Shown here piece after piece: positions 20,326 to 46,750 of a stretch of 64,000 nucleotides of DNA (position 1 is the stretch's first letter; every line of letters begins with the position of its first letter). The stretch is taken from assembly GCA_963734525.1 (NCBI GenBank), contig CAVTHI010000009.1:67429-131428 (forward strand). Direction: 5' to 3'. Origin of the DNA: an uncultured archaeon. Its GTDB lineage: Archaea; Micrarchaeota; Micrarchaeia; Anstonellales; Bilamarchaeaceae. Below the pieces are notes generated by a model, which was given only the letters and a program-made list of their open reading frames with translations, was not told where the DNA came from and searched no databases. The position numbers and the translations under genes are program-made.

Positions 20326-20335
20326 GGTGTTGACG

Positions 20336-26300: not shown

Positions 26301-28741
26301 GGATTCCGCAGGGTGCGGTTGTAAACGAGATGGCCCGGGCCAGGGGAGAGGCGATTCAATCGCTTTCAGCGATATCCACCGAAGGGAACGCGGTTTCCGA
26401 CGCCATCAGGACGGGAATCCTAAGGAGGGTGCGCAACAACCAGGTCCCTGGCGGGGACCCGGCGAGAAGTTTCGATGCGACGGTGCTTGACACGCTCAGG
26501 AGCCCGGAGGTCGCTGCTGCAGTGGAACGCGCACATGGAAGGCAGGCGAGGCTCCGCTACGAGGCGGCCGTCCGCGAGGGGACGCTCGCCGAAGTGATGG
26601 ACAGGCTGCCTGCGTCCATGAGAGCGCCGGCGGCCGAAGGCGCATTGGAACTGCCTGCAACCGCAAGGGCCAGGATGGCCCAAGACATGTCGGACGTGAC
26701 AGGATTCGTCTCGAGGCTGAGGGCGACGCCGCAGATTTCAGACGGCCTCACCACGATGGGCACGCTCGGCGAACGCTTCAACACTATAATGGGCGCGACG
26801 AGGGCGCAGGGCGGCGCGAGGGCTGCGGCCGGCAGGCCGCTCGGCGTCGGGCAATGGACGGGAAGGCAGGCGCGCAGGGCAGGACGCGTGCTTTATTATG
26901 CCGAGCCGACCTGGGGCGTCCGCAGCGGAATCGGCGAATTCGCCGCCGAAGCGCGCGCGGGAGGATGGCGCGCGGGACTCCGCAATTCGCTTTTCACGGG
27001 AAGGACGCTGCTCCGCCTCGGCCATGCCGTAGGATGGGGCATCGGCATGTATTATGCGATACCCGCGCTCCGCGACTGGTATACGGGAGCCGGGGACATC
27101 AGGCGCGGCAACCAGATGGCGAACGAGATTTACGGGATGAACGTCAGCGAGGACAACGCGCGCTGGCTGACAGGCACCGCCGGGGAGAGGTTCGGCCGCT
27201 CGCTTGTCGTGGGCGATTCGCGCCTCAAGCCGCAGAACCCTGACGATTTGCGCGGCATACTGTTCAGCGAGCAATTGGGCAACATATGGATAGACCGGAC
27301 GAAGGTGAACGATGCGCTGACCGACGGAAGGACGATGGCCGGCGCATTGTCGGACATCAACGACAGATTGATGACCGCAAGCGGCGCGGCAGGAGAAGGA
27401 AGGACGACGGCCCGGACCGAACTCACAGCGAGGCTGGGGAGGCTAGGGATTACGACCGAAGACGTCCGCTCCGCGCTCATCAGGGAAAAGGAGCGCTCGT
27501 TGAACAGGCAGCTGGATGCGACCGAGAGCGCGCAGGTCCAGGCTATGGAGCCTGCGGATATGATTGCCGAATTCCTGCGCCTGCGCGGGGGTAGGACGCA
27601 GCTCGACATGTCGGACATGACTGCGCTCCGCCTTGGCGACTGGCAGAGGCGCGGCGTCGCAATCGACGCGAGGCGCGCGGTTGTGCAGACATACCTCGAC
27701 GACATGGGCATGACCGGCACGGCATTGAGCGACACCGCCCAATTCTTCTCGAGGAGGGAGAACGCGGATGCGTTCCTCTTCCTGTGGAGCTCGGCGAGGG
27801 CCGGCAGCATACCCGCGACATACCTAGACAACATGATAGCGTACCTGATGGCGAGCGCGACGCCCGGCGGGCCGACGAACCTTGCCGAGATGCAGAGGCA
27901 GAGCGCGAGGACGCCGCAGGCGATGGCGACCGAACTGCGCTCATTCTACGAGAACATGCCGGGCGAATATGTCGCCCGCGTGGACGCCCTCGAACGCACC
28001 GCGACATCGGGCACGCCGGAAGAGCGAGCCCGCGCCACGCGCGAGCTTTCGAGCCTGCACCTCGGCGAGCTGCTGAGGCGGAGGGCGATAGCGCAGGGAT
28101 TCTATCTCGACATCCCGCAGGCGGACGGCACCATGAGGGGAATCCGGCCGAGCAGCTTCCTGCAGGCGCTTGATGAGCGCGCGTGGATTGTCGAGAGCTT
28201 CAGGGCGCCGTTCGAGACGATGCTCGCTGGATTCAGGAGCAACCCGGGCGCGCTCCGCGCATTGAATGCGCTGACGGTCCGGGACAACGAGGACATTTAC
28301 GGCGACCCGGTCGCTCTTGCGACGAGGCTTGCCCTCGTGGGAGGAAGGACGCGCGGCGCGGACAACACCGAGCGGCCTTTCACGGACGAGGTGAACAGGC
28401 TGCTCGTGGATGCGGGAAGCGCGGACGCCGCGGTCAGGCAGAGGGCCGAGGGCCAGCTGTCGACGCTGCTTTCGCAGTGCGGGCTCGCGCTCAGCGCGCG
28501 TCCGCTCCAGGCTTTCGATTGCCGGAAGGCAGCAGGTGACCGTCGAGGACCTCGTGGAGATGATTGGCGACAATGCAAGGGCCGAGGGCGTGATAGGGCC
28601 TTCAATCCTCGTAAGCGCGACCGACCGCTCCATGCTCGGGGCGGCAGACGGCCCGGCGCTTGCCAGGCTGGTCGCAAGATACAGCGACGCCCAGGGCGGG
28701 CTGATGCGCTGGATAACCGAGAACAGGGACAGCATCACTGA
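20336..28741 (+). CDS. giant protein G2, main frame (credible to about 28513; full protein about 3000 aa with the next feature)
   Basis: GAGGTG lies 7 nt before ATG 20336. N-terminal ~1220 aa are Ala/Arg/Glu-rich and helical with a recurring G-[DN]-[FYI]-x-x-A-x-x-L-L signature. Hydrophobic cluster at 23999-24520, Gly/Pro/Arg spacers (24890-24960, 25420-25620), second hydrophobic segment at 26962-27085. The last ~75 codons (RKAAGDRRGPRGDDW...) look out-of-frame. Confidence 0.85.
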   Translation: MGGSQLRTPEESQETRRIIIPRRAGEAETEETRRLYDQAVATVRQLQQVSRTITLPADVRAEIESRQRIVESMRRTGVPYLQDRYNNELDEILSVLALAKRASDAGRSVDALPLLERGTAMMQYLGRLYAGEVGFMINGVPPNLRAGTQTHNDLLDSVEVVILDVGTANAARSDRVLRAFNLYVQNETAYNTDDVAIRGERDALVEFILDNGVRAGADKAARERNPYTAEQAARDETRLQRFEANIARISAMLRQDNVQRVTAWKDDITGRMTQLSAEDASRGLMESLRQDMDALLARLGNERTAREVRDEDMLTLENRYLMLTGRPPVPTREARDEQLQLSAAELRGSGTRSDRSAAREGTQEWFGAQALALITGGNREIAALAVAMGFLERTASGSTGGARAILGDDRYNAIVAVISQRGDLSPVRASQFATEIEVATLSADAARLERGYRIRGRGTARERLTRINEAARAARERIDAGDIAGARRLLDMTSRYAMYLDGARGRDWAASGEMESALDMEIRGQNGQQAFEDAITRNQFAAQITDFRSSLSQWGRGIADQKRVVDSGLTHVEELIAQGNFREAQGALLRLIMYADSVDKLGIRRGGKIESMNPRFDGTGMERALGAFARGQTQIDGRGVETVFNESYVAAQRAAVDAEAARLGDLATRNRWTIGRETVDLALQGARARAQQGDYEGAFRLLRYVQEFYGAPTAARAASGGLPAQAARSEGWRYRLAARDGAGFVEGRNRLIDAMRMEAEATTPERQRAAAQLFQLGTQRIAECDMLMASAAQLRQRYDGTIAFIDGNAQTVGRVVIGYDAQNNPLYLDLARIREYESTHSRDPALGTGMGLTALFRQLQTAANNGDISGYNRIVEAIFGRYDSRTGTTVGGRFWLVAQRAARMQAIDSVVTQLGGLSGFTGSLPPYDGSVERRRTLETSRTALITRLEAARYTNEDITARVGETPSIMDTYAQLLSNVDRERRTSLAISVITEQASLSDQFRVAVGYPGGEITTTTRRQLDESRRWLAEAKTAALEGRFEDSATAYDRAIEARIDAMQTYWARSVTTLTDAMSVHRASHLDRPDERFFPVLRMQHDELEVAPYREAHRTVYRDLLFGNVSGETARAHGERMQRRIQGTVMIESSVFGIPAGSTAQQILSDFKRDQASVRQSVYAGWRAEDQAMRTADPGERQYQMARATREYDEARSTIQAMQLQAERARMVAQVAVLGLAIATLFIPVVGIYISGAIFIGSQVEGMVTEYRMNGTVSTESWVMFGVTVATLGFAAVGGVIRTVAIGARVSAESLALAGNLARAEQMMASASRYAMASRAFTGTALGLGIGMSGYMEFSAYRMYQESQRTNDPVRKEALLHQAMLTAGMGLFPLLHMGVAYGYRGMTAPPRMRAAAALEEITPARELVPGEAAEAPLASRLRTADGLFEFMGKLRSTEASVRAAAEAELATIPNAAMRTGVARLASDARIGNATYLNLLRSLQSGELTPYGRAELEGALGRLTPELPPEGGPGGGPRGGGPRTTRPEVDAAGLSESGGLFGFLQDLLVPNGAPAPALNARAAARATLARLRLDPRTTPVADAIDNIVGNPERGIAGNPAIRAAIEGERAANPSAQPPAFADIDPFTSRGLSNAARGIARNVREPVREAAVLEATTGLPIEDAVGQPVPLRPGQAEGVGTAVPVRAMAGEGPTGGGRGTGGGEPVPGRAGPAEIGGPARGGRGTGGGARPPRGAAPRGPAEGEAPAQAGGQQINITVQPPAPQPGRVVRAGRWIGGRVAGGYRAAGRWARGEAALENVPVLEAETDAMIAQRIDATVAQSPQNVVAMMRMIYDRAMSPQTRVATRAQCMEILEGLYRHPEVQRLIAAAADSRPATAANPRAVAYDPKIAEMQGNIVRGIDTNVQVQGVTGRTPDIRRQAYLDSLPELTQVQRGIMVDALEAQGAAQGLPPLAATAEVLGLELNAAQRANALLRLVETGRIPQGAVVNEMARARGEAIQSLSAISTEGNAVSDAIRTGILRRVRNNQVPGGDPARSFDATVLDTLRSPEVAAAVERAHGRQARLRYEAAVREGTLAEVMDRLPASMRAPAAEGALELPATARARMAQDMSDVTGFVSRLRATPQISDGLTTMGTLGERFNTIMGATRAQGGARAAAGRPLGVGQWTGRQARRAGRVLYYAEPTWGVRSGIGEFAAEARAGGWRAGLRNSLFTGRTLLRLGHAVGWGIGMYYAIPALRDWYTGAGDIRRGNQMANEIYGMNVSEDNARWLTGTAGERFGRSLVVGDSRLKPQNPDDLRGILFSEQLGNIWIDRTKVNDALTDGRTMAGALSDINDRLMTASGAAGEGRTTARTELTARLGRLGITTEDVRSALIREKERSLNRQLDATESAQVQAMEPADMIAEFLRLRGGRTQLDMSDMTALRLGDWQRRGVAIDARRAVVQTYLDDMGMTGTALSDTAQFFSRRENADAFLFLWSSARAGSIPATYLDNMIAYLMASATPGGPTNLAEMQRQSARTPQAMATELRSFYENMPGEYVARVDALERTATSGTPEERARATRELSSLHLGELLRRRAIAQGFYLDIPQADGTMRGIRPSSFLQALDERAWIVESFRAPFETMLAGFRSNPGALRALNALTVRDNEDIYGDPVALATRLALVGGRTRGADNTERPFTDEVNRLLVDAGSADAAVRQRAEGQLSTLLSQCGLALSARPLQAFDCRKAAGDRRGPRGDDWRQCKGRGRDRAFNPRKRDRPLHARGGRRPGACQAGRKIQRRPGRADALDNREQGQHH

Positions 28742-29345
28742 CCTGCATGCGATACTCGCGTACATACAGCAGAACTCCACGGGCGGATTCAGGAACACCC
28801 AGGATGCGGCGTCGTTCGCCGACCGCAACGCCTCCTTGTTCAGAACGAGCGGGTGGTTCAATGCGAGGGCCAGGACACGGGCCGAGCTCGAGGCGGCCGC
28901 AAGAAGGGCGGTGCCGCAGGCTCCGGGCCGCGCCACCGCCGGAGCGCAGACGCCTGCGACGACGAGGGAATTCCCCGGCGTGACCGCGCTGGAGATGGTC
29001 CCCGAGCGCGCGCAGCCGTCACAGCAGGCGCCGGTCACGGTGACGCTCGAGCTGACGGCGCAGCAGCGCCAGCAGGCTGGCGCGTTCTATTCGAGCGAGC
29101 GCGGGCAGGCTCTCGGCACGATGATTGACGGCCTGTTTGGACGGCATGTATTCGCCGGGGAGCTCAGACAGGGCGATTCTCGCCAAGCTTTCGGAGAACC
29201 GGCGACAGTCGATGGGAATGTCACCGCGCCCGAGCGGGCAAGGACTGCTGTTCGCGAGGAGATATTCAGGATCCTCATGAGCACCAAGCGGGCCGATGTC
29301 ACAATGAGGAGCAGGTGGGGTATTACGGTGACGGGCACGGGGTGA
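28410..29345 (+). CDS. G2 C-terminal continuation in a shifted frame (credible from about 28513)
   Basis: From LSIAGRQQVTVEDLVEMIGDNARAEG... onward the composition matches G2. The upstream part of this ORF (MREARTPRSGRGPRAS...) is junk. Changing the T3 run at 28513-28515 to T2 would fuse the frames. Confidence 0.75.
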   Translation: MREARTPRSGRGPRASCRRCFRSAGSRSARVRSRLSIAGRQQVTVEDLVEMIGDNARAEGVIGPSILVSATDRSMLGAADGPALARLVARYSDAQGGLMRWITENRDSITDLHAILAYIQQNSTGGFRNTQDAASFADRNASLFRTSGWFNARARTRAELEAAARRAVPQAPGRATAGAQTPATTREFPGVTALEMVPERAQPSQQAPVTVTLELTAQQRQQAGAFYSSERGQALGTMIDGLFGRHVFAGELRQGDSRQAFGEPATVDGNVTAPERARTAVREEIFRILMSTKRADVTMRSRWGITVTGTG

Positions 29346-29349
29346 CGCG

Positions 29350-29496
29350 ATGCGCGTGACGGTCGATATGGCAAGGGCCCGCGATCCGTGGCGCAACCGC
29401 ATAAGGCAGTTCACGCTGGAAAGGCAGCGCGCCGAGGCGGCGGCAAGGGGCGGAACAGGCCCGGGGGCCCAGGCCCAGCCGCCGAGGCGGCAGTAA
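29350..29496 (+). CDS. possible 48-aa ORF between G2 and G3 (below the track cutoff)
   Basis: My translation is MRVTVDMARARDPWRNRIRQFTLERQRAEAAARGGTGPGAQAQPPRRQ. It starts 5 nt after the G2 stop and ends 15 nt before the G3 ATG. No independent support. Confidence 0.25.
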   Translation: MRVTVDMARARDPWRNRIRQFTLERQRAEAAARGGTGPGAQAQPPRRQ

Positions 29497-29511: not shown

Positions 29512-32016
29512 ATGGCTGAGGTCCAACTTAGCGGAAACAGGTTAGTCGTCGTATGCAGGGGAACGAGTCGCTCGACTGGAGTGACAATCGACCCCAGCCA
29601 GCCCGACCAGATTGAAGCTGCGGTGAGGCGCGCCATCAGCGCCGCCGCGCCGTATTTCTACGGAATCGGGGAGGCGCAGGGGCGCGAGGTCGAGGCAATC
29701 AACGCGTCAACGGCAGCGTCAGCCATAAGGAGGAGCGTGGCCAGGTCCCAGCCGGCAGCACAGCCGACTGCACCTCCGGCTCCGACGCAAACAGCGCCTC
29801 CTGCAAGGACCGCACAGCCAGCGGCTCCGCCTCCGGCGAGGACAATGCAGCAGGCGGCACCCCAGGCGCCCGCACCGCCGAGGACCGAAGGAAGGGCCGA
29901 GGCGCCCGCCGCCCCCGCAAGGGATACTGCGGCAACGCGCGGAAGCGGCTCGGGAAGGAGGGGCAGCAGGACCGCGGAAGCGACGCCGCGCCCGACAATC
30001 ACGCTCGTATGGCTGGACCTGCAGCTGCGCGATTCGCGCCGCGACGACCGGCGCGCGCAGGCCGCGGCCAACCTCCTGCACTCGAACAGCAGGTTCGTGG
30101 AGACGTTCCTCGACCCCGGATTGCAGAGGGGAGTCGAGCGGACGGACGCGCAGAAGAGCGTGACCATCAGCATCTTCAACCAGCTTTACCAGATTCCGAG
30201 CTTCAGGCTATACCTCTCGTCGATGGCCGCCCAGCAGCAGGCGCTTCCCGAGCGCGACCGCGTGTTCTCGGAGTTCGTCACGCTCCAGGCGTTCCTCACC
30301 GAACCCGGACGCGGCGAGCAGCTGAGCGCCCAGGCAGAATCCCGCATCATATCCGCGGCAGATTTGTACATCAGGTATTTCCTGCTCAATTTCGTGGCGG
30401 CGAATTCCGACTATTCGAGATACCGCGAGGAAATCCTCCAGCTCCCGACGACGGCATGGAGGCTCCGGAACGTGGAGGGCGCAAGGACATTCCAGCCCAC
30501 GACCGGGCGCGCGCCGAGCGACCTCGACCGCGCCGCGCTGATGAGGCTGTATATATCAAGCCCGATGGACGCCGACACCGTGACATGCGCCTCGCTTTAC
30601 ATGCGCAGGTGGTTCATGGAACACCCCGAGAGGGGCAACGGGAGGAGCCAGTCGAGGATATCGCAGTGGAGGGCCCCGGAAATCATCCAGCCCGAGCAGA
30701 GGGCGGATGCGACTGCACAGCCGGTCGCCCAGCCTTCCGCGGTGCCGGCGCAGCCGGCGGCGACCACGGTCGTTCCGCGCGTGGGTATCATCGGCGACTC
30801 GATAACGGCGGGCGGAAGATACGGGAGGACGCTCCGGACCACGCTGCGCACGACGTCCCCGGAGGCTGTCGTCGATTCATACGGCGTCCAGAACGAATCC
30901 ATTTCGACAATCCGCGGCAGGTTCAGGCGCGACATCCTGGACCACAGCCCGGCCTACAACACGGTGGTCATACAGGGCGGCATCAACGGCATCGAGGGCC
31001 TCAGCGTGATTGACGCCGAAAGTTCGTTCACGAGGATGATAAGCGATGCGAGGGGGCGCGGCATGAAGGTCGTGCTGCTGACGATAACTCCGTGGGCGGG
31101 CTACAGCGGCTCGACGACGGAAGCCCAGCGCAGGACGGCTGAATTGAACACCTGGCTCCGCTCGCAGGCGCAGGCCGACGGCAGCGTGGTTGTGGTCGAC
31201 ACGTCCGCGCTCGGCGAAGGGAATCCGCCAAGGCTGCGCGCAGCGTACGACAGCGGCGACGGCCTGCACCCCAACGACGCGGGCAGGGATTTGATAGCCC
31301 AGCGGATTGCGCAGGCCGCGTTCGCAAGGGCTCCGACCGCGACCGAAACGAGGACCGCGCTCCAGGATTTCGCAGACAGGAACTGGAGGTCGCTTCCGGC
31401 GGAGATTTACCGCCACGCCCAGGGAGGGAACCCGGCTGGCTTCATAACGCTTACGAGGAACCTTCCGGCGGGCGAGACATCGTTCGAAGGCGCGCTCCGG
31501 ACGCTCAGCCGCGACGACATACCCCGCGCATACGACAGGATTTTCAACGAATACCTGCATACGGACCGCAGTTTCCTGGATTTCTGCAACACCTGGCGCG
31601 AAGGCGAGACGCGCCCGTACGAGGGCGTGGCACTGGCGTCCGTGACGATGAGCGCGAGCAGCTCGCCTACCGACCGCAGGCTGGTGGTGCGCGCAATCCA
31701 GGCATACCTTAATTACACTGCGGGCAGGACGGGCGAGGACTGGTACAGCAGGCTGCGCGACGATTTCCGCATGATGAACCGCGACGTCCTCGGTCTCACG
31801 CGCGACAACCTGGACGTGAACGGGCTCGAGGACGTGCGCACGCTCGCCGCAGTCGCGGTCTACAGCTGGAGGAAGGGACACCGCAGCGAGGCGGTCGGCG
31901 CCTGGGCGACGTCGCTCAACATCACGCCCAGGACAACGCCCCCGGCCCAGCCGGTGCAGCCGGTCGTGCCTCCGGGCCAGGACGGCCAGAGGAGAAGGGT
32001 CATCCACCCCGGCTGA
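29512..32016 (+). CDS. G3: 834-aa protein with an SGNH/GDSL hydrolase domain
   Basis: AAGGAG lies upstream. Pro/Ala-rich linker at 29745-29995. SGNH blocks: VGIIGDSITAGG (I), VVIQGGINGI (III), GDGLHPNDAG (V) at 30775-31330. The flanking regions are unrecognised. Confidence 0.85.
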   Translation: MAEVQLSGNRLVVVCRGTSRSTGVTIDPSQPDQIEAAVRRAISAAAPYFYGIGEAQGREVEAINASTAASAIRRSVARSQPAAQPTAPPAPTQTAPPARTAQPAAPPPARTMQQAAPQAPAPPRTEGRAEAPAAPARDTAATRGSGSGRRGSRTAEATPRPTITLVWLDLQLRDSRRDDRRAQAAANLLHSNSRFVETFLDPGLQRGVERTDAQKSVTISIFNQLYQIPSFRLYLSSMAAQQQALPERDRVFSEFVTLQAFLTEPGRGEQLSAQAESRIISAADLYIRYFLLNFVAANSDYSRYREEILQLPTTAWRLRNVEGARTFQPTTGRAPSDLDRAALMRLYISSPMDADTVTCASLYMRRWFMEHPERGNGRSQSRISQWRAPEIIQPEQRADATAQPVAQPSAVPAQPAATTVVPRVGIIGDSITAGGRYGRTLRTTLRTTSPEAVVDSYGVQNESISTIRGRFRRDILDHSPAYNTVVIQGGINGIEGLSVIDAESSFTRMISDARGRGMKVVLLTITPWAGYSGSTTEAQRRTAELNTWLRSQAQADGSVVVVDTSALGEGNPPRLRAAYDSGDGLHPNDAGRDLIAQRIAQAAFARAPTATETRTALQDFADRNWRSLPAEIYRHAQGGNPAGFITLTRNLPAGETSFEGALRTLSRDDIPRAYDRIFNEYLHTDRSFLDFCNTWREGETRPYEGVALASVTMSASSSPTDRRLVVRAIQAYLNYTAGRTGEDWYSRLRDDFRMMNRDVLGLTRDNLDVNGLEDVRTLAAVAVYSWRKGHRSEAVGAWATSLNITPRTTPPAQPVQPVVPPGQDGQRRRVIHPG

Positions 32017-32179: not shown

Positions 32180-35100
32180 ATGTCAGGGCCAAGGTTGAAA
32201 TGGAATACGGAATTGTCCGAGAGGGCGGCCGAGTATGCGAGAAGGCAGGCACAGGCGGCCATGTCGAATATCCCGTTCAAGCTCAAGGCCGCGCTGATTG
32301 GGGGCATGATGAGCATCGGCGAAGCGGCCGGTGCAAGCAATATAAACAGCGGCGGGGGAGATGGTATAATGGCCTTCCAGAAGATGCCCGGGAGGAGCGG
32401 CGGGTTGAAAGAGGCGGGGGAAACGCATGCCGTTGCGCCACATGAGTCCATCCGCATTGCCGTGCAGCAGGCGCAGGTCGCCACGGAGAAGCTGAGGGAG
32501 TTCATGCTCGGCGGGAACCAGGCCCGCGCAGAGGAATTCCTCAGGATTTACGACGACTGGACGCAAAGGGAGGAAAGCGAGTCCGGCGAATTCAACGACG
32601 CGTTCATGGTGGCGCTGCGGGAAAGGGTGATGAACGACCCCGAGCTGGGGCCGATATTCAACGCTTACTGGGGCGCGAGGACGACCGAAGACGGCGGGCT
32701 CGACCTCACGCAGCTTTGTGTCAGCGTGAGCGAGGTCTTCAGGGCGGCCGCATCCGGAAGCGCGGAAGCCATCGAGGAGCTACGCAGGCAATACGGCGAA
32801 TTCGCGGGGGCATTCGTCGACGGCATAGTGGCGGTCTATCAATCATCGCAGGGCGCGGAGGAAGGCATCGCGCAAGCCGTCCCCGTCCCGGTGAGGACCG
32901 AGGACCAGACCGAAACGGACGCGGGCCGCGCAGCAGATTTCATCAGGAATTTCGCGCGCTCTAGCGACGAGGAGGACAGCCGCGGCCACGACCAGGCATA
33001 TTACCTCGGCCAGCTTATGGGGATACTCGCGAGGTACCGCGACGGCGACGGATTCGATTCGTCGTTCCTTGGCGCGCTCCTGCGGAGGCTGGGGGAGCGC
33101 GAGAGGGCCGTGCTCGAAGGGTTCGAGAGAAGGGTGGGAATAGGCGAGGGCGAATCGCTGACATTCTCAAATTTCGAGCGGTTCCTTGAGGATGTGGGGA
33201 TTGTCTCGCGCGAGCTGCGCGCCGGCGAGCAGCAGTCCGTCAACCTTGCCAACCTGCGCACGCGTTACGGGGATGCGTTCGTGACTGCTATGCAGAGGCT
33301 GTTGCCCGCCCAGGAGCCGATGCACCTTGCCACTCTTTCGATATTACGGGAGAAAATAGACGCCATTCGAGCGTTTGCAAGGGAGAGGCATATCGGCCTT
33401 TCGACGATGCAAATCAGCGGCAGGACGCTTGATGAATGGGAGGGGGAGCTCGAGGAACTGGAGGCGCAGGGCGAAGACGCGGACCAGGAAGCGATAAACA
33501 CCATGAACGGCAGCCTGCCCTCCGAGAATGCGCTCTTGCGGGAGGAGCGCGAGGCGCGGAGGATATCCTCCAGGCTCGACATACTCATCAACGGGACGCG
33601 CCCGTTCTACTATAATATAGGGGAAAGCTGGCTTTCGATGGCACGGAGCCTCCTCATGCAGGCCGACAACCGCGGGGCCGGGGCGGCATCCGGCGGATTC
33701 TTCACGATACTGTTCACGCGGGATTTAGGGGAGAGGGACATGCGCCTCGAGGACGTGGTGAGCACGGGCGTGGACGAGGAAAGCGGGGAGGAGACGAGCG
33801 AGGTCAGCACGGGCGTCCGCTCCACCATCGAGAGGATTTCCGACGCGATTCCACTACTGCGGAGCATCAGGCTCATGGTGAACGGCGGCTTCCGCGAATC
33901 CGACATGGACAGCACGCGGAGGATGATAAGCGAATTGCCGGATGATTTGTTCCCGCAGGAAGTGCGTGACGCGATGGAACACGGCTTCGAGCAGACGGCG
34001 CGGTCTGCGGCGGAAACAGGATACGACGAGGGCACGATAAGGAGCGCAATCACGATGGTGAGGCGCGCGTGCAGCGGACTTGGCCCGGAAATCCAGGACA
34101 GGCTCCTCATGGGGACCGTGTCGAGCTGGCATAACGACACGGGAGAGAGCGAGGAGGGCGCATCGAGGCTGCAGGCATTGGACGATGCGTATTCGCATAT
34201 CGCATCCGGCGCGGTGTTCGGCGAGTTCCAGGAATTCACCGGCCTGCTGGAGGAAAGGTTCCGGATGGAGGCCGAGTCAGCGCAGACCGGGCTCCCGGAT
34301 GAAACCGCATTCGACGGCATCCTCATCCGCGACGCGCGGACCAGGCTGACGAACGCCTCCGAGATTTTCCGCAACAGCCCCCTCGAGATGAGGTTCGCCA
34401 TTTTCCAGCTGTTCCAGGGCCAGCGCCCGTCCGGGGAGCTTTCAAGCGAGGACATCGGGCGCATCGCCGCGGTCATAAACGGGCTGGAAGGGATGCCTTC
34501 GGCATATGCCGCGCTGCTCATCCAGCGCGCCGGCCCGACGCTCTTTGCGGACTATGATGCGCAGAGCATAGAGGTCATCCTCACGGCAATCAGCTCATAC
34601 AGCCAGCCGCTCATCAACGCGGGCATGTACCGCGAGCTCGAGGAGTATTACGAAGGCATCGGCGACCGGATAGCGGACCTGTTCGTCGACGTGGTCGCGC
34701 TCAGGAACGTCGCGCGCGAACAGGGCGGCATGCTCCGCGACGTGCGCGTGAGGCTGCCTGGGGACAGGCCGGATTTCGCGGACCTGTACCTGCCTGCGAG
34801 CAGGATTTCTATCAGCCTTCCCAAAAGGATTTACGAGCGCTGGGTGTCGGAGGGCGCGGTCGTCCGCGTCACCCAGTCTCCGGACATCAGGGAGTCGCCC
34901 GCCCCTTCGCCGGGCATGGGCGCAATCGAGCGGGCGTTCTTCGGCCGCGATGCCATCCATATGGAGATGAACGTCCCGATGCCGCTCCTTTCGCTCCCGC
35001 TCGTCATCGAGAACCTCGGCGCCCTGCGCCCGCGCTATGCGATTCCTGTCGAGGAGATGAACGAGCTCTGGGCCGACGCCTCGGGGGCGGTGCATTCCGT

Positions 35101-37916: not shown

Positions 37917-40900
37917 ATGGCCGGTCCGAGGTTGAAGCACGGGGAGGAAAAGGAGGTGCCAGAAGGCGCGCCGTCCGAACGCCGCAGCAGGCCGAATTCG
38001 GCAGCCTTTTCACGGCCAGGGTGGCGCGATTGGCCACCGCGACGCTTGCCGGAATTATGACGTTGGAAGGCATAACTAATTTAAATATCCTTAGTCCTAA
38101 TGTTGCCATGGCACAACCGAGGCGGAAGGGGGGCGCGGAACCAGAAGAGATCACAAGGCTCCAGGCACAGGCCGTGGATGCCGCAAATGCTTTTCGGGAT
38201 TATATCGTAGGAGGGGACCCGGCCAGGAGGCAGTTTTTCTGGACCACCTACAACCAGGCGTTCGGCGGTGCCACGCTGCACGACAACTCCACGTTCATGA
38301 CGAAGCTCTTCGAGGAGCTCGACCGCATCGGCAGGGACCCAGGGGTCCAGCCGTTGCTCGCCGCATTCACGGCGGACCGGGGAAGCCTCTTCGGCTTCCT
38401 CTGGAGCAATCCGGTGCATTTCACGGATTTCATCGATACCACTTACAACATCAGGCAGAGGCTCGAAGGGGGCACGGCGAGGCCCGCGGACATAACGAGG
38501 CTCTCCCGGCAGGTCCGCGAATCGCAGGGCAGGCCGGCCAGGGCGGACACCCAGGTCGGGCGCGTCCGCGCGGCGATGGAGGCCAACACGAGCCTCACCG
38601 TAGAAGACGCGGTGAGGGCGGAGCTGGAGAGGCCGAGCCGCGAGGAGGCGACGGCGAGATACGGCGACAACCTGACGCGCGAAGTGATTGCGCGCTCCCC
38701 AGGGCAGTTGGCAATCAGGGCGGCTGTCGCACTGCGCGACTTCATACTCACTGGGGACGAATCCAAGCGCACGCTTTTCCGCAGCATCTGGGACGCGAAC
38801 ACCACCCAGGCGTTCACCGACGCGTTCACAGCGGAATTCACGGCGAGGATTTACCGCGACAGCGGCTCGGGCCTCGCGGCGATTGCGCAGGCTTACAACA
38901 CCAGGCACAGCGGGACCGACCCGATAGCGTTCGCCACAATGATTACGCAGCTCTATGCGGCGGCGGGCTCGCGCACAGACACCACGCGCGAAATAGAGCA
39001 GATGCGCACGGCCGAAGGCACGAACGTCGTGGACCCGCTCCTGGCAATAGTGGCAAGGGGCATGGCGGGCAGGGCGATAACGCTCATGCGCGACGTGCTC
39101 GAGAACGGGACTCCGGCGTCACGGGACCAGTTCGTCGCTATATTGAACGGCAGGCTGGCGGTCATTGCGAACAACGCGGTCCAGATGCCGAACGTCGAGA
39201 ACAACGACGTGTTCTGGAACGAGTTCACGCGGCTTTACACCGCGGAAATCGGGCAGAGCAGCCGCCTTGCGACGCTGGTGCGGAGCTTCCAGAGGAATAT
39301 ACTCCCGATTGCAATCAGGGACATCTACACGGAGCTTGCGAGGGCGAGCCCGGACACTGCGAGGCTGAATGCGGATTACGGGCCTGACCTTGTGGGGCTC
39401 ATCGCGTCCAACACAGGCACGCTTTCGTGGATGGCGCGCCCGGATTCGGACTTGTCCTCGGAAATCACGAGGAGGTCGCGGGCGGAGGACCCGGCCGCGG
39501 TCCGCGTAAGCGGCGTCCGCCTGGCTCAGGGCGTTTCCAGGCCGGCGGCGCTTAGGGAGACTTATATCGCGCTCGTGCAGGAAAGGGCGGTCACGCGCAC
39601 GGTCGAGGCGCCGGACGTGACGGCCATACTCGAGCGGAATTTCGATTCGCTTTCATACCTTGCCGGAACGCCGGCCCAGGTCCAGAGGGAGATTGAGCGG
39701 AGGGCGAGGGCCAGGCCGCCGGATGCGGTTGCACAGCAGCTGCTCGCGCGCTTCCCCACAAACGCCGGAGCATCGCTCTCGGCCGCGTACACCGCGCTCC
39801 GCGACGCGCGGACGCGCAGGGCTGCGCTCGTAACGCAATACGGCCAGGAATTCGTGGACATCGTGGCGGCGAACCTCGACGGACTCCAGTGGGTCATGAG
39901 GCCCGTGGAAGAGATAGACAGCCAGATGCGCTCCAGGCGCGACGACGCGTTCGTCCGCTCGGTCAACACCAGGATAGGATATTCGGTCGGCACGCTCGCG
40001 CATGGCCTCCGCGACATCTATACCGAGTTCGGCCGGCCTACGCCGGACCGCGCAAGGCTGGACCAGACTTACGGCTCTGAACTCGTGACGCTCGTGGCGA
40101 CCAACCGCGCGAGCCTCGGATGGCTCGGAAGCGACCTCGCCACGGTGGAGAGGACGCTCCAGGACCCGAGCACGGACGCAACCACGCGCTCGCTGCAGCT
40201 CAAGCTTTACAGTTATACGCCGGTCCAGCTCGTTTCCGCAATCGCCCGCGCAAGAAGCGCAATCACCAGGCGCGGGCTCGCCCTTGCGGATGCGACAGAC
40301 GCATACGGCACGGTCTTCGTAGGCCCGGTCGTTTCGCGCCAGGCGGTCGTCACCCCGTCAATCTCGCCAGAGGTTGCGCAGCCCCTCCAGCAGGTGCTCG
40401 AATCCCGCGCGCTCGGCATAGTGCGGCAGTTCGAGGAAATCGACAGGCAGCTCCGCTGGCCCATCCTCGAGCCGGCGCGCGTGCTCATCCAGGAGCGCAT
40501 CAGGCTCTGGAGGCAGGAGAACGACGCAATCAGGCTGGAGGCCAGGCAGACGCAGGACCCGACCGCGCTTGCGGCGCTCGAAACACGGCAGGCGACGCTC
40601 ATCAACTCCATGCTCACGCCCGCAGAAATGCGCCGCTCGGTCGAAATGGCGTTCGCCATGGTGCACCTTGCGGAGACAGGCGGCGATATGAGCCGCGCGC
40701 CCAGCCTCAGCGACGTCACGACGACGGACCAGGACATCGGGACATTGAGGAGGCTCTCGGAGTGGTACCGCGGGCTGAGCACGACGGGGAAGCAGCCGGT
40801 GGTGGGCGAGGTCGTCTCGTCCGTGCTTTACCGCGCCGACCCGAACCTGTACCAGTTCATAACCGGGCTGTCCGAACCCGGATTCGTCAGCGCGATCTCG

Positions 40901-42661
40901 CGCGTATATTCGCTCACAAGGAGAATCGGCGGGGACAACAGGCAGACGCTGGTCGCCCTTTACGGCGAGCAGTTCGTGGCGCTCGTGGAATCGCAGGCGC
41001 CGCACCTGCGCATCCTTGAAAGCCCTTCGGTGATGGCGAACCCCGCGGCGACGATGGCAAGCCTCAGGCGTGGCGAGAACGAGCTTTACGCGAGCATAGT
41101 CGTCCGCGTCTACAGGGCCGTGTCGAGCCCGGCCGCAGGCGAGGACAGGGCGAGGATGGAGAGCCTCTTCGGGCCCGAGTTCGTGGCCGCAGTCGTGGCG
41201 AACCAGGCGCAGATGACAGCACTCGGAACGGGCACGGCAGGCCTTCCGGAGGTCCAGGCGCTCCCCGAATCCGTCAGGCGCGCACTCGCGGCCGCGTATC
41301 CGGCGGCTTACCAGAGAAGCATCGGGGCACTTGTCCGCGGATTCCGCAACCAGGAGGACTGGATGTTCAGGAGCATGTCCGCGGTGTACGCGGCCCTGCG
41401 CGAAAGGCCGGCCCGCGGGGCTTCGGCTGATGCGACGCAGGCGTACGCACAGCGCGTCAGGGAGCTGAATGCCGCATACGGCGACAGCTTCGTCGCTACT
41501 ATAAGCGAGAACATGGCGCAGTTCGAGTTCCTCCAGCGCCCGACTTCTTCGCCGAGGGACCTGGCCAACATCCCCCCCGAGCTCCGCGAACGGCTCAACA
41601 CCACTTTCGAAGGCGGGCCTGCGGTGGGCAGGGCGAGCTTCATGACGAACTTCCTGCGCGTATACGAGCAGCTGCCGAGGGTGTACACCCAGCTGCGCGG
41701 GGCGCTCGCGTTCTCGAACCCGACGGACACGCTGCCGACGACGCTCGCGAACGCCATCGCCTATTACCGCCAGCAGTTCGGAAGCAACAACTACCTCTTC
41801 AACCAGTACATCAACCTGGACCTCCTCAGCAGGAACATCCAGCGCATCGCACGCAGGTACAACGTCCAGCTTCCGCCGAACATCGCGGACGGCATCGATT
41901 CGCCGGAGGAGCTCTCGCAGTTCATCAGCACCGAAACCGGGAGGAGCCTGCTTGCGGCGGGAAGGACGTTCTATAACGATACCCTGCTCCCGCTGTACCA
42001 GCAGCAGAAGGTCGGACAACAACTTCCACCCGACGACCGGCGATTACACCGACGCGAACGTGACGAACCTGGTGAACCAGCTTTCCATCCTCGACGCGCT
42101 CTACCTCGGCGTGGCGCTCGAAAGCGTTTCGGGAACCGACAGCGCGTTCCAGCGGTCGGCCGCGACGGCGACCATGAACGCGATTCTCGTCATCTCGAAC
42201 CGCGACCCGTACCTCGTAGGGCCGTTCCTCCTCCAGGTGCTCCCGGCTATCCTGTCATGCTCGCAGGACGAGCGGACCATCGTCGCCGCGATAGAGGCGT
42301 TCAACGGGATATTCACCCAGAGGTACGAGACGGGAACGAGGGAAATCGCATACAGCAACGCCCTCAACCGCAGGTATTTCCTCGAGGTGTTCCAGCGCAT
42401 CGGCGACAGGCTCCCCGAGGTCACGAGCTCCTACGACCACAGCAGGCTCGAGGACGAGCTGCGCCTCACCCCGGAGCCCAGGACCGACGAGGGATACATG
42501 AGCCCGCTGCTCTACCGCTACAGGCCGGGCTTCTGGCAGGGCGACGGCCTCGAGGCGCTTCCGACGATGTACGGCCAGCAGGGCTCGCCGATACGCCTGC
42601 TTCCGAGGCCCACGATGCCGACAAGCCCGTTCCTGCCGGTTCCGGGAGGATTCACGATTGA
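37917..42661 (+). CDS. giant protein G5, N-terminal part (start ATG 37917; frame change near 37960-37980; credible to about 42013)
   Basis: AAGGAAGGA lies 8 nt before ATG 37917, which opens MAGPRLKHGEEKEV..., parallel to G4 MSGPRLKWN. That frame stops at 38058-38060. The tracked 37688 frame then reads RRAVRTPQQAEFGSLFTARVARLATATLAGIMTLEGITN..., homologous to G4. After LYQQQKV (about 42013) the tracked frame becomes Arg/Pro junk. Confidence 0.8.
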
Positions 42662-45600
42662 TTCGGGCGCGAGCGACATATTCAGCAGCATGTACGACCA
42701 GCTTCGGCCGCCGGTGGAAAGGATGTTCCGCCAGCGCGTGCCTGCCAGGTTCAGGATAGGCGCGCTCGGCGCATCGACGATTATACGCAGGATAAACCAG
42801 CTCTTCGGCCCGATGCCGGTCGATTACAACGATTACTGGCTTAGCGCCTTCGGCGAAGCCGGGGCATACTACGCGCACCAGGAGAGGGGGCCGACCTCGA
42901 CGAACAGGGGCGGCCTTGCAGGCGTCGGCGGAGGCCGCACGATCAGCGGCGGCGAAAGGGCGACCGCCAGGTGGACGCGCGACCAGACCGAAACCGCGAT
43001 TCCGGCCGGCGAAGGCCAGGCGCGGAGCGCCACGTCCACGACTTCGGATACCGTGGACATCAACGCATCGGCAGTCAGGCTGCCGCCCCCATTGTCGGGA
43101 CCGGTGCCGCTTCCGCTCCTGGGCGTCGTGCCGTACGACCTGTTCAGGATGGGCGAGGGAACCGGCTCGGCATACGTGGCGAGGCCGCAGTCCGAAGTCC
43201 AATCCGAGCTCGAGCGCAGGCGCGGAACCGGGGACCAGGTCGTCGCGAACATATTCACGCTCAGGCCGAACAACACCGCGGCGGCCCTTCTCGACACGTA
43301 CACCGAACTGCTCAAGACCGCGCCGGACCGCACTAGGCTGGAGCGGGATTACGGAAGGCCGTTCGTCGAGCTCGTCGCTGGCAACAGGCAGTACCTCAAC
43401 TGGGTCCTGTCGCAGTCACCCGAGATGGGCGTCGGAATACACCGCGCGAGGCAGGAATTCCATTACGAGAACTCGAGCACGACGCAGACCACCGCGCCGC
43501 CGGCAGGGCAGGCCGGGGACACTACGGTCACGGACACGCAGACGAGGGGCAGGACGAGGGGGCTCCTCGAGACCTACCAGAGGATTGCGCGCCAGTCCCA
43601 GACGGACATGCTCCTTTTCGTCGCGGGCGAGCACGTGCCCGAGCTTTCGTCGGCAGGCGGTGCAACATCCCAGCGCGGGGAGGACAGGCTCAAGACGAGG
43701 CTGTACTTCGTCACGCGCGAAGGCGACGTCTACCAGCTCGCATACGGCCTCGACACGAGGGCCCAGCTCCTCAACTACCTTTATGCCGGGGCGAACACCC
43801 AGCAGTTCCTCGCATCGGCGAGGGCTGTCGGGCGGCAGATGCTGACGGGCGACTCGGCGGCGGCCGGTTTCGACGGCGCGGCGGTGGGGTTCACCCTTCC
43901 GCGCTCGGGCGGGGATTCGTTCTCGTCCCTTGCGTTCGGCCAGCTTGTGCGCAGCATGAGGTACATGGACCCGGTCCACGCCGAGCAGGCCGCGGGCATG
44001 GCTGTCACCAGCCTCCTTGCGGACCGGAGGCAGAGGGACGTATATGCGGCGTTCTACCGCGGGGCGGAGATGATAACCGTCGACCAGCAGGACCGCCAGC
44101 ACATAACCGACACCAGGTTCGCTGAAGGGACCGGCGAGGTCATGTGGAGGCGCATGCGCATCGACCCCATGGCCTACCAGGCCGAGATAAGGGCGGCCGG
44201 CGGATACCCGGCGACCGTGGCGGCAAGGGGCCGCCTCGAATGGCGCCCCTCAAGATACCAGACCAACGCGCTCGGCGTCACGGCGGCCTACTCTCATATC
44301 GACCTGCTGCGCGAGATGAGGGCCGCGGGCGCGGATGCCAACGAAATTTACGGCGGATTGCAGACCGTCCTTACGAGCCTTTACGGCTGGTCCGAGGACA
44401 CGGCGAGGGACACCGGATGGCTCGCCGCGGGGAGCTACATGTACGCGCGCATGGAGAACTACACGATGCAGAATCCGGACGGCACCTACCGGACGCTGCC
44501 TTCGGGCCCGGAGGGGAACCCGGAGCAGCATTACGCGAGTGCCATGTTCATGTACTGGGCCCAGCGCCACGGCATACTCATGGGCGCGCAGAGGGTGCCG
44601 GGATGGACGAGGATATACGACAGGATAGACCAGGCCATGAGGCAGATACAGCAGAACCCGGCCAACGAGGCGACGATACTCGAAGGGCTTTCGCGCGCGC
44701 TGCGCGATGATTTGCGCAGGGACATCTGGCGCTTCGCCCTCGCATACGGGTATGACGGCGAGCGCGTCAGGATATACACCGTCGGAGGCGGCCAGTACGT
44801 CAACGATGAAACCGCATACGGGAACCTGTACAGCATGTTCATCTTCGGCAGGCCTGCGGCGGGATACGTGGACATCCTCGGCCACGCTTACGGGTATTCG
44901 CCCCTCGTCATCAGCGAGAACCCGGGCACGGCGGGGCAGTTCACCGTGACGCGCGGCAGGCAGACGCCGTTCGTCGACCTGTACACGGGGTTCGGCATCA
45001 TGGACTGGCCGAGCATCAGCCTGCAGAGGTACCAGAGGGAAGTGGCGATAACGAGCGCGCCGAACATCGCAGGGGCGGTGCGCGACGCCTACCGCGAACT
45101 CGGCGGCATGAGGAACAGGACGCGCCTCGTCCGCGACTACGGCGAATCCCTGGTCGCGCTGGTCGAGGAAGGCCGCGAGACGCTCAGCTGGATGATAAGG
45201 CCGGCCGCGCAGGTCCGAACCGAGATGCAGACGCGCCTCGGCCAGGACGACCCGATAGTGCTGTCGTTCCTCAACCTGCGCTCAGGACGGGAGAGCGGGG
45301 CGACGACGGTCAGCGCAGAGGACGCGGCCGCGCTCGTGGACATATTCACCGAGCTCCGGAAGGCCACGCCGAACCGCGAACGGCTCGAAACGAGGTATTC
45401 CCGCGAGCTCGTGGACCTTGTCGAGAGGAACAGCACGGACCTCGACTGGATGCTCCTCCCGGCAGACCGCATGAGAAGCGAATTCACGCGGAGGGCGCAG
45501 GCGAGAGGCTCGGTCGAAGCGAGGATGGCCGAGGTGTCATTGCCGGCCCCGCCCACCCAGGCGTCGCTAACAGGGCCCGAGGTCAAGACGCTCATGGAGC

Positions 45601-46709
45601 AGAACATGCTCGACGTGCTTGTCGGCGCAACAGGCGCGGATTCGCGCGTGGGCCTGAGCCCGGAGCGCTACGACATCCTGCTCGGAAGCCACCTCGGCAG
45701 CCCGGCAGGGAGGAGGGACAGGGCGACGACGTTCTACGTACTGCACACGCCGGTCTCGGAGCGCTCGGAGGCGAGGGGCTCGCTGGTCATCGGCGACCAG
45801 CAGGACCTCGACGAGTGGATGCGCCACGGCCACCAGATAGGGCGCGGCATTTCCCGCCTCGAAGTCGCGAGAACCGGAAGCGATTATACCTTCACGTTCT
45901 CGGGCGACAGGAGGCTTAGGGCGCTTACGGCCGAACGGTTCGTGGGAGGGATTACCGTCCCGCTCCGCGAATCCGAATTCAGGGTCGGAAGCAGCTGGAC
46001 GGTCGGCGGGCTGATGCAGGTCCTCCAGGACCACAGGCTCGACCTCCTCGCAGGCGCCATGTACGGAAGGCGCGAATACGGGAACGAGCGCTGGGACCAG
46101 TGGACCGTCACCGTTTCGGGCAGGCTGCAGGGCACGAACACCGCGACCGTCAGCGAGCAGTGGTACGGATACCTGTTCTTCAACCAGGCCACCAGGCAGG
46201 TGGTCGCCGCGAGCGGGGATGTGTTCAACAACGCCGAGGAGATGAGGCAGGTGTGCCAGACCCTCGGCGGGGCCGGGTGCAACAGCCTCTCGGACCTTTC
46301 GAGGACCACGGGCGGCGTCGGCCTCCAGTGGGCGCGGACGGACGTCGTCACGGGCGACCGGATGAGCTTCCACTTCTTCTTCGAAGGCGGCGTGGAGACC
46401 TACCGGCCGTGGAGCGGCGCGGGCTCAGGCACCGTGGACACGGGCGGGGGCAACACCGCCGCGGTGACAATCAACCCGCGCGACAACGCGTTCGTATTCC
46501 GCACCGGCGTAGGGTTCAACTACACCCAGCAGAGCCCCAACAGCACGATACCGAACATCTACTCGCTCACCTTGGGCGCGCAGAACGGCTCGTGGCCCCT
46601 CATACCCGGGGACGTCACGAGGCCGGAATACCTGCAGTCCTGGGGCACGTCGATGGAAACGGCCATACCGGGCTGGTCGCTCATGCTGCACGGCCGCGTG
46701 CAGTGGTAG
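41952..46709 (+). CDS. giant protein G5, C-terminal part (credible from about 42013; whole G5 about 2930 aa)
   Basis: From DNNFHPTTGDYTDANVTNLVNQLSILDAL... the composition is protein-like. Contains further ~50-aa repeats (43296-, 45087-, 45342-) and a beta-rich Gly/aromatic C-terminus ending ...GWSLMLHGRVQW. Changing GG to G at about 42011-42016 would fuse it to the previous frame. Confidence 0.8.
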   Translation: MRREGRSITIPCSRCTSSRRSDNNFHPTTGDYTDANVTNLVNQLSILDALYLGVALESVSGTDSAFQRSAATATMNAILVISNRDPYLVGPFLLQVLPAILSCSQDERTIVAAIEAFNGIFTQRYETGTREIAYSNALNRRYFLEVFQRIGDRLPEVTSSYDHSRLEDELRLTPEPRTDEGYMSPLLYRYRPGFWQGDGLEALPTMYGQQGSPIRLLPRPTMPTSPFLPVPGGFTIDSGASDIFSSMYDQLRPPVERMFRQRVPARFRIGALGASTIIRRINQLFGPMPVDYNDYWLSAFGEAGAYYAHQERGPTSTNRGGLAGVGGGRTISGGERATARWTRDQTETAIPAGEGQARSATSTTSDTVDINASAVRLPPPLSGPVPLPLLGVVPYDLFRMGEGTGSAYVARPQSEVQSELERRRGTGDQVVANIFTLRPNNTAAALLDTYTELLKTAPDRTRLERDYGRPFVELVAGNRQYLNWVLSQSPEMGVGIHRARQEFHYENSSTTQTTAPPAGQAGDTTVTDTQTRGRTRGLLETYQRIARQSQTDMLLFVAGEHVPELSSAGGATSQRGEDRLKTRLYFVTREGDVYQLAYGLDTRAQLLNYLYAGANTQQFLASARAVGRQMLTGDSAAAGFDGAAVGFTLPRSGGDSFSSLAFGQLVRSMRYMDPVHAEQAAGMAVTSLLADRRQRDVYAAFYRGAEMITVDQQDRQHITDTRFAEGTGEVMWRRMRIDPMAYQAEIRAAGGYPATVAARGRLEWRPSRYQTNALGVTAAYSHIDLLREMRAAGADANEIYGGLQTVLTSLYGWSEDTARDTGWLAAGSYMYARMENYTMQNPDGTYRTLPSGPEGNPEQHYASAMFMYWAQRHGILMGAQRVPGWTRIYDRIDQAMRQIQQNPANEATILEGLSRALRDDLRRDIWRFALAYGYDGERVRIYTVGGGQYVNDETAYGNLYSMFIFGRPAAGYVDILGHAYGYSPLVISENPGTAGQFTVTRGRQTPFVDLYTGFGIMDWPSISLQRYQREVAITSAPNIAGAVRDAYRELGGMRNRTRLVRDYGESLVALVEEGRETLSWMIRPAAQVRTEMQTRLGQDDPIVLSFLNLRSGRESGATTVSAEDAAALVDIFTELRKATPNRERLETRYSRELVDLVERNSTDLDWMLLPADRMRSEFTRRAQARGSVEARMAEVSLPAPPTQASLTGPEVKTLMEQNMLDVLVGATGADSRVGLSPERYDILLGSHLGSPAGRRDRATTFYVLHTPVSERSEARGSLVIGDQQDLDEWMRHGHQIGRGISRLEVARTGSDYTFTFSGDRRLRALTAERFVGGITVPLRESEFRVGSSWTVGGLMQVLQDHRLDLLAGAMYGRREYGNERWDQWTVTVSGRLQGTNTATVSEQWYGYLFFNQATRQVVAASGDVFNNAEEMRQVCQTLGGAGCNSLSDLSRTTGGVGLQWARTDVVTGDRMSFHFFFEGGVETYRPWSGAGSGTVDTGGGNTAAVTINPRDNAFVFRTGVGFNYTQQSPNSTIPNIYSLTLGAQNGSWPLIPGDVTRPEYLQSWGTSMETAIPGWSLMLHGRVQW

Positions 46710-46750
46710 TTTTTTTTTATTTTTATTTTTCCATTTTTCGCCTTTTTCCT
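46710..46750. terminator. bidirectional oligo-T/A region between convergent G5 and 46865-47311
   Basis: tttttttttatttttatttttccatttttcgcctttttcc directly follows the G5 stop. Confidence 0.5.

Follow-up and report, generated by a model that had tools for sequence, protein, structure and literature searches.

Could a giant archaeal protein without any recognisable domain be built in part from copies of a single module, and if so what would such a module be for? The question is raised by a stretch of 64,000 nucleotides (nt), hereafter the window, from an uncultured archaeon of the family Bilamarchaeaceae (Micrarchaeota, Anstonellales; positions 67,429 to 131,428 of contig CAVTHI010000009.1, assembly GCA_963734525.1), and more precisely by its gene G5, in which a reading of the sequence alone (the original prediction) had proposed a previously unrecognised repeat. 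Most of what is known of Micrarchaeota, as of other DPANN archaea, comes from metagenomes, and in much of their proteome no domain can be recognised. What emerges here is a new protein module, captured in a profile, mapped in ten copies, modelled with confidence as helical and very narrow in its phylogenetic range, together with the giant protein family that carries it and a gene cluster (G2, a GDSL-lipase protein, in some cases G4, then G5) conserved across the 13 genome loci found.

Ten copies of one module

The repeat as such is real. All nine peptides quoted in the original prediction, from G5 and from the neighbouring gene G4, are present in the window by exact match, either exactly where they had been placed or at most 3 nt away (Table 1). 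The six strong copies, those at 39323, 39785, 40016, 43296, 45087 and 45342 that were used for the window profile, share 26-42% identity in pairs (mean 35%, n=6), against 6.9% (maximum 23%) for random 53-mers drawn from the same protein. When profiles are made from five of them, the sixth is recovered at E-values of 1e-13 to 1e-18, and the top score of the family profile on 100 shuffles of the G5 protein is 3.3 bits. With a GC content of about 65% and an abundance of Ala, Arg and Leu, the gene could in principle contain copies that look alike by chance or composition, but these figures, and the conservation of the copies in orthologues, refute that explanation and leave it a probability that is practically nil.

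Three weaker copies, which form a looser trio (copies 5-7), have independent E-values (iE) of 0.004-0.05 with the profile from the six window copies alone, and of 4e-10 to 3e-8 with the family profile, at probabilities of 97.5-97.8% by hhalign. The six-copy profile has no match outside G5 in the six-frame translation of the whole window, and it matches the same positions in 18 orthologues, with E-values as low as 2e-8 in the trio region. When all matches were projected onto G5, one more copy came to light, the tenth, which is degenerate (LRETYIALVQER...NFDSLSYLAGTPAQVQREIERRAR) and had been overlooked at first reading; it lies between what had been taken for copies one and two. Once it is included, copies 1-4 (first residues 421, 498, 575 and 652 in the merged G5 sequence) make up an exact tandem array with a period of 231 nt, or 77 residues, and are thus not dispersed; copies 9 and 10 start 85 residues apart. 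The description of the repeat as dispersed with variable spacers must therefore be abandoned in favour of three tandem clusters and one facultative copy (copy 8), whereas the count of at least nine copies holds, with one more to be added. The proposed length of about 50 residues suits the conserved core (about 53 residues), but not the full unit, which includes a variable helical linker and comes to 77-85 residues altogether.

When the repeat alignment is compared with that of the family, profile against profile, the ten copies are found at 96.8-99.1% probability, and the N-terminal region yields two further, doubtful candidates (26% and 8%). Searches for direct and tandem repeats at the DNA level returned nothing relevant, so the duplications must be old; an ancient internal duplication in giant Micrarchaeota proteins (about 2,400-3,100 residues) would have given rise to the repeat.

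Table 1. Coordinates in the window of gene G5, its parts and its neighbours
Feature	Position	Strand	Remarks
Gene G5	37917..46709	+	one gene, ~2,930 codons; stop 46707-46709
Signal-like region	37917..38116	+	charged stretch, hydrophobic ~15 residues (VARLATATLAGIMTL), then motif [DN]-I-N-N-x-G-x4-A-M-[AG]-Q (here GITNLNILSPNVAMAQ)
Frameshift 1 (frame 3 to 2)	38003..38020	+	beside T4 run
Copy 1	39308..39484 (core 39323-39481)	+	strong; most conserved copy, together with RNILPIAIRDIY flank
Copy 2	39545..39712	+	degenerate, without Y-G; iE 1.6e-5; hhalign 96.8%; in all orthologues
Copy 3	39770..39946 (core 39785-39943)	+	strong
Copy 4	40001..40180 (core 40016-40174)	+	strong
Copy 5	40889..41086	+	intermediate; iE 4.2e-10; hhalign 97.6%
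Copy 6	41093..41275	+	intermediate; iE 2.5e-9; hhalign 97.8%
Copy 7	41369..41584	+	intermediate; insertion between helix A and Y-G; iE 3.2e-8; hhalign 97.5%
Frameshift 2 (frame 2 to 3)	42010..42016	+	1-nt insertion or 2-nt deletion versus orthologues
Copy 8	43281..43457	+	strong; in indel region
Copy 9	45072..45245	+	strong
Copy 10	45327..45503	+	strong; ends ~140 residues ahead of predicted barrel
Predicted C-terminal beta-barrel	45918..46706	+	~11-13 long amphipathic strands, ending ...MLHGRVQW
Quoted peptides in G5, exact match	39323, 39785, 40016, 40904, 43299, 45087, 45342
Quoted peptides in G4, exact match	32783, 33257
Candidate degenerate copy in G4	33212..33301	+	…VSRELRAGEQ…NLRTRYGDAFVTAMQR…; iE 0.006
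Second, weaker candidate in G4	32741-32803	+	iE 1.2
Conserved cluster	20327-48508
Giant gene G2	20327-29433		two frame changes (2 to 3, then 3 to 1) versus intact orthologue in locus L001
GDSL-lipase protein	29512-32016

A predicted five-helix unit without known relatives

The AlphaFold2 model of a four-unit segment, based on 19 orthologous rows, is all-alpha, with a predicted local distance difference test score (pLDDT) of 89.3 and a predicted template modelling score (pTM) of 0.80, a value which suggests that the units keep a fixed mutual arrangement. According to DSSP, each unit of the model has the same pattern of five helices: predicted helix A corresponds to I-Y-T-E-L, helix B to R-x-R-L-x3-Y (followed by a break at G), helix C to E-[LF]-V-x-L-V-x2-N (followed by the loop L-x-W-[ML]-x-R-P) and helix D to E-[IM]-x-R-R, after which comes the linker helix E. 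Head-to-tail all-alpha units at a constant period place G5 in the class of tandem alpha-helical repeats, a class that is structural and implies no homology. The most informative columns among 150 copies are V29 (93%), Y24 (86%), G25 (85%), V32 (81%), L20 (80%), Y7 (77%) and L39 (76%), with R17, N35, W41 and P45 as further ones. Since these best-conserved columns are mostly hydrophobic core or helix caps (with one arginine, R17, among them), the module would mainly fix a fold rather than form a catalytic site. Conservation in the N-terminal half peaks in copy 1 and its flank R-N-I-L-x-I-A-I-R-D-I-Y, where there are invariant charged residues; this stretch may have an additional specific role, possibly as a contact site.

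The original prediction could not assign the repeat to a named family, and hidden Markov model searches, structure prediction and a fold search have likewise led to no described family. Pfam-A has no family at E-values of up to 0.1 for the two halves of G5, none recurs among 150 single copies even at E-values of up to 1, where the matches are scattered noise (the most frequent, NinG, in nine of the 150 copies at 0.039 or worse; TPR-type families only sporadically, in two, at 0.023 or worse), and no precomputed Pfam domain is attached to the 18 orthologues. The copies thus match none of the curated Pfam repeat families TPR, Sel1, HEAT, ARM, ankyrin, FIVAR, GA, DUF1542 and spectrin. NCBIfam gave no family at E-values of up to 0.1 for the N-terminal and C-terminal halves of G5, for G4 or for another gene of the window, G1. 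No PDB sequence matches the repeat profile (best E-value 0.33) or, at E-values of up to 1, the halves of G5. In Foldseek searches the four-unit model found no fold match in the PDB (best E-value 2.3, template modelling (TM) score 0.16) and none in BFVD (best E-value 0.6, TM-score below 0.2), where matches to tape measure proteins, at 0.6 or worse, were rejected as generic long-helix similarity. Full-text literature searches retrieved no description of the repeat or of the family, nor of a beta-barrel or of giant proteins in Micrarchaeota. By sequence the repeat is therefore related to no curated family, and its fold, as tested with the four-unit array, has no counterpart among solved or viral structures.

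What it does resemble, it resembles in kind. TPR, Sel1, HEAT and ARM arrays are also all-alpha and tandem, with a constant period and conservation at core and helix caps, but their units have 24-47 residues in two or three helices, against 77-85 residues in five; designed and natural helical repeats, compared with the four-unit model, remain at Foldseek E-values above 2 and TM-scores of about 0.12-0.16. Spectrin shares the principle of helical bundle units strung as spacers in giant proteins, although its units are cytoskeletal three-helix bundles of 106 residues and no match to the G5 repeat exists in sequence or fold. FIVAR, GA and DUF1542 are helical modules of giant Gram-positive surface proteins such as Ebh of Staphylococcus aureus, where units of tens to about 130 residues follow one another in tandem as an elongated rod. 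The likeness here lies in tandem helical modules inside a giant envelope protein (whose secretion is, for G5, presumed), and the difference in the lack of any Pfam or PDB fold match, the predicted five helices within 77-85 residues, the archaeal host and the arrangement of ten copies in three clusters. The repeat is, in short, an unrecognised form of a well-known type of building block, the helical module of giant envelope proteins.

A giant-protein family of Micrarchaeota

Queried with the merged G5 protein, a set of 5.8 billion proteins returned only 18 homologues, all with an E-value of 0 and 36-73% identity, of which 17 are full-length (2,750-3,080 residues) and one is annotated as partial; those with names are hypothetical proteins of Candidatus Micrarchaeota, Micrarchaeia or Bilamarchaeum, the last of which NCBI places in the order Anstonellales of the class Micrarchaeia. 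The family is collinear along its full length, save for one indel region that holds the facultative copy 8 and is present in some members (G5, P0001, P0008, P0010 and P0011), and the repeat copies keep their positions in all 18 orthologues. Collinearity and repeat positions make G5 a member of a hitherto undescribed family of giant proteins of Micrarchaeota. An exhaustive HMMER search of 1.84 billion representatives with the 150-copy repeat alignment (A1; E-values of up to 0.001) found 30 proteins, all of them members of the giant G5 family, fragments of these or more distant giant relatives, apart from one artefact (P0039, a spurious tandem-repeat translation); those to which a source could be assigned all come from metagenome-assembled genomes of Micrarchaeota. 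A scan of one genome per GTDB species yielded 13 loci, 12 titled Micrarchaeota, Micrarchaeia, Bilamarchaeum or plain 'archaeon' and one titled 'Candidatus ainarchaeum'. The repeat is confined to the G5 protein superfamily.

G5 is one gene, but not a single clean open reading frame, since it changes frame twice within the window. Reading begins in frame 3 with the ATG at 37917, passes to frame 2 at about 38010 and returns to frame 3 at about 42015, and the family member P0001 maps to 38108-42031 (frame 2) and 42003-46706 (frame 3). At the first junction frame 3 matches residues 1-31 of P0009 up to ...AAFSR, and frame 2 from ...FTARVARLATATLAG on; at the second, frame 2 is sensible as far as ...LYQQQKV (about 42013), after which frame 3 takes over with DNNFHPTTGDY..., and P0001, P0002 and P0008 run across it without interruption (...LYQQQKV/DNNFHPTTGDYTD...). 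Because the two fragments of G5, of 1,317 and 1,564 codons, and likewise those of G2 are otherwise stop-free, the frameshifts are taken to be, probably, assembly or sequencing indels, and an old pseudogene was rejected. Programmed frameshifting was rejected as well: there is no slippery site at 42010-42016, the orthologues are continuous at the junction near 42014 and many of them also across the N-terminal region, and the two frameshifts of G2 bring the number to four in about 26 kb, which suggests indel errors of the assembly. Directly after the G5 stop lies a T-rich tract (46710-46749, with TTTATT repeats) that resembles an archaeal oligo-T terminator.

The two ends of the protein

The N-terminus of G5 (MAGPRLKHGEEKE, in frame 3) matches the N-termini of its family (MAGPQFKDEQKKE in P0009) and of G4 (MSGPRLKWNTE). 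It has the look of an export signal, with a putative site of the A-x-A type at which the protein would be cleaved. The motif that follows the hydrophobic residues is kept in the distant members P0020, P0021, P0033, P0034 and P0035 and in G4, and since distant members conserve this upstream part at the protein level, it must be translated. G5 (37917-38116), G4 (32180-32380) and distant relatives have in common the sequence M-[AS]-G-P-[RK]-L-K, a charged and a short hydrophobic stretch and the motif listed in Table 1, a shared signature that may be a dedicated export or processing signal. A second motif of the N-terminal region, A-x2-A-[FL]-R-[DE]-[YF]-[IVM]-[LV]-[TG]-G-[DN]-x3-R-x2-F-x2-I-[WY], occurs at least twice in G5 (38192-38260 and 38732-38800, with a possible looser third seen by eye) and once in G4 (32492-32560), and recurs in distant relatives such as P0040.

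The C-terminus was less expected. An AlphaFold model of the last 402 residues (26 rows; pLDDT 79.7, pTM 0.59) shows, beginning at model residue 140, some 11-13 long antiparallel strands, which in the sequence alternate between hydrophobic and polar residues and have one hydrophobic face, and the last residue is W or F in nearly all complete family members listed. All 50 of the 50 PDB neighbours listed by Foldseek are outer-membrane barrels of bacteria or mitochondria (FhaC, OprC, Sam50, TamA, FadL, BamA and CdiB), at probabilities of up to 0.99 and E-values of 1.5e-3 to 5e-2. A barrel of the outer-membrane type is unexpected in an archaeal protein. Bacterial contamination as its source was rejected, because the window is archaeal, with genes for fibrillarin, aTrm56 and a geranylgeranyl reductase and an intron-containing tRNA, and because aTrm56 adjoins G5 also in the other loci from metagenome-assembled genomes whose flank reaches that far.

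A scaffold at the cell envelope?

What, then, might the repeat be for? We lean, if only slightly, towards an envelope protein that is exported and anchored by its barrel, and whose scaffold is made by the repeat as a lineage-specific structural module of helices. The repeat arrays would form a rigid helical scaffold or stalk, the protein would be exported by means of its N-terminal signal-like sequence and held in a membrane by its C-terminal beta-barrel, similar to those of outer-membrane proteins (OMPs), and the repeats would serve to space the conserved central domains and to present them at the cell envelope. A number of observations weigh against this proposal, whose scaffold role draws on the conservation pattern and on analogy. 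No annotated relative points to a function, and copy 1 keeps charged residues (R4, R12, D13, E17 and R27) that suit binding as well as structure. The hydrophobicity of the N-terminus is modest, below the threshold for a transmembrane helix, several gene callers start orthologues at a later M-A-Q, and N-glycosylation sequons are not enriched (counts of sequons and of cysteines give no signal for or against export). As to the barrel, its TM-scores to the Foldseek neighbours are low (0.2-0.36), Pfam searches with the C-terminal domains of 26 members gave scattered noise and no OMP or autotransporter match, and no machinery for beta-barrel insertion is known in archaea.

The rival that deserves most attention, although we think it doubtful, is that the repeats are ligand- or partner-binding modules, i.e. 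an adhesin-like array comparable to Sel1/TPR or FIVAR-type repeats, directed at the envelope of another cell, at S-layer glycans or at a partner from the cluster (G2, the GDSL protein or G4). The strong conservation of copy 1 and its flank with their invariant charged residues would fit this, as would the place of G5 in a conserved cluster of giant genes and the common reliance of DPANN archaea on cell-cell contact (PMC11329633). Conservation common to the copies is, however, mostly that of core and helix-cap residues, the Pfam searches with single copies and the NCBIfam searches match no ligand-binding family, and Anstonellales-type Micrarchaeota and other relatives have been suggested to be less host-dependent, which calls for caution with any reading based on contact with a host (PMC12892359). 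That the repeat is instead a very diverged member of a described helical repeat or domain family, below the sensitivity of the searches, seems improbable: the Pfam and NCBIfam searches were at the level of HMMER and Foldseek was given the four-unit array rather than a single unit, yet no Pfam family recurs in the 150 copies and neither the PDB profile search nor Foldseek comes near a match. G5 might also be a giant intracellular scaffold, with an N-terminal hydrophobic stretch that is no signal and a soluble C-terminal beta domain, for which the weak N-terminal hydrophobicity, the annotated starts of some orthologues after that stretch, the unenriched sequons and the low pTM of the C-terminal model could all be invoked. 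This is quite improbable in our view, given that the stretch upstream is kept at the protein level in distant members, that the C-terminal strands are long and amphipathic with a single hydrophobic face, and that the C-terminal model has only membrane barrels as its structural neighbours.

With the preferred reading of an exported, barrel-anchored scaffold in mind, the whole of G5 can be compared with two kinds of giant envelope protein. In type V autotransporters a signal-like N-terminus, a very long passenger and a C-terminal amphipathic barrel with an aromatic last residue follow one another in the order predicted for G5, and the neighbours of the predicted barrel include the transporters of two-partner secretion (type Vb) FhaC and CdiB as well as TamA and BamA of the Omp85 family. 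The modelled passenger segment of G5 (four repeats), however, is all-alpha and not a beta-helix, there is no autotransporter or OMP match in Pfam, and the host is an archaeon, in which neither an outer membrane nor the beta-barrel assembly machinery (BAM) is known; with neither a beta-helical passenger nor a diderm host with BAM, G5 is not filed as an autotransporter, and what is similar is only the order of the parts. The SPEARE protein of Nanohaloarchaeum antarcticum is reportedly a giant with protease, adhesion and endonuclease domains. Like G5 it belongs to the very large, lineage-specific and presumably envelope proteins of DPANN genomes, from which G5 differs in having no recognisable domain and no detectable homology outside metagenome-assembled genomes of Micrarchaeota.

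A bolder proposal, unlikely as a whole but worth spelling out, is that proteins of the G5 type are an archaeal analogue of bacterial autotransporters and at the same time part of an envelope or cell-contact machine of Micrarchaeota. A barrel that needs no BAM for insertion would hold a helical stalk, about 2,400 residues long and made partly of this repeat, in the membrane of the cell itself or of a partner; G5 would form the machine together with G2, a giant membrane protein conserved alongside it, and with the GDSL-lipase protein. Electron cryotomography of Microcaldus variisymbioticus ARM-1 has shown unidentified envelope complexes, one of which might be this machine (PMC11329633). For context, the latter is a cultured member of the same phylum, and the large envelope complexes in question have components that are themselves unidentified (PMC11329633).

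By itself the repeat is a modest addition, lineage-specific repeats being common in giant envelope proteins, and it is the context that gives it interest. The more unusual point is the predicted barrel of outer-membrane type in an archaeal protein, which wants independent confirmation: if it is real, there are archaeal proteins with such a barrel, which would bear on BAM-free insertion and on how the envelope of DPANN archaea is built.

G4, the gene neighbourhood and the rest of the window

The original prediction had also seen the R-x-x-Y-G-x-x-F-V core of the repeat in G4. The peptides are there and G4 is a genuine paralogue, but as repeat copies they are weakly supported: with the family profile G4 reaches an E-value of 5e-5 for the full sequence and an iE of 0.006 for the best domain, and by hhalign an E-value of 0.003 at a probability of 10%, so that degenerate copies are plausible at these sites. 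G4 is a shorter member of the same superfamily, with the same N-terminal motif and 27% identity to the N-terminal region of G5 in BLASTP (E-value 3e-4), and an all-against-all BLASTP of the giant proteins of the window finds G4 and G5 to be the only related pair. G4 has only three homologues including itself, and is related to P0041 (E-value 1e-68) and P0027 (2e-23), the latter with six repeat matches at an iE of 0.011 or better (best 2.8e-12).

In most of the 13 loci, as far as the contigs reach, the order of genes is G2, GDSL-lipase protein, G4 (in only some of the loci), G5, aTrm56 and phosphoglucomutase; the flanking genes are rearranged in two of the 13. The frame changes of G2 lie at 28324-28575 and about 29341. 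Its protein, of 2,800-3,000 residues, has no recognisable domain, Pfam searches with G4, G1 and G2 gave nothing, and two small phage proteins that G2 matched among PDB sequences at an E-value of about 0.009 were treated as noise. In mid-protein (residues 1230-1301; 24014-24229) G2 has a strongly hydrophobic hairpin of two predicted transmembrane helices. The protein of G1 (15555-19766; 1,403 residues) shares its first residues, MAGP..., with the G5 family. Neither Pfam nor NCBIfam matches it, and it is not detectably similar to G2, G4 or G5.

Elsewhere in the window, the tRNA at 61565-61691 (+ strand) was found by Rfam as a gene of 127 nt and missed by ARAGORN in bacterial mode; the presence of an intron is presumed and would agree with an archaeal genome. 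At 3755-7316 (- strand), two overlapping open reading frames, one encoding PAS-PAS-GAF-PAS without an output domain and the other GAF-PAS-HisKA-HATPase and starting inside a GAF domain, are apparently one sensor histidine kinase split by a further frameshift.

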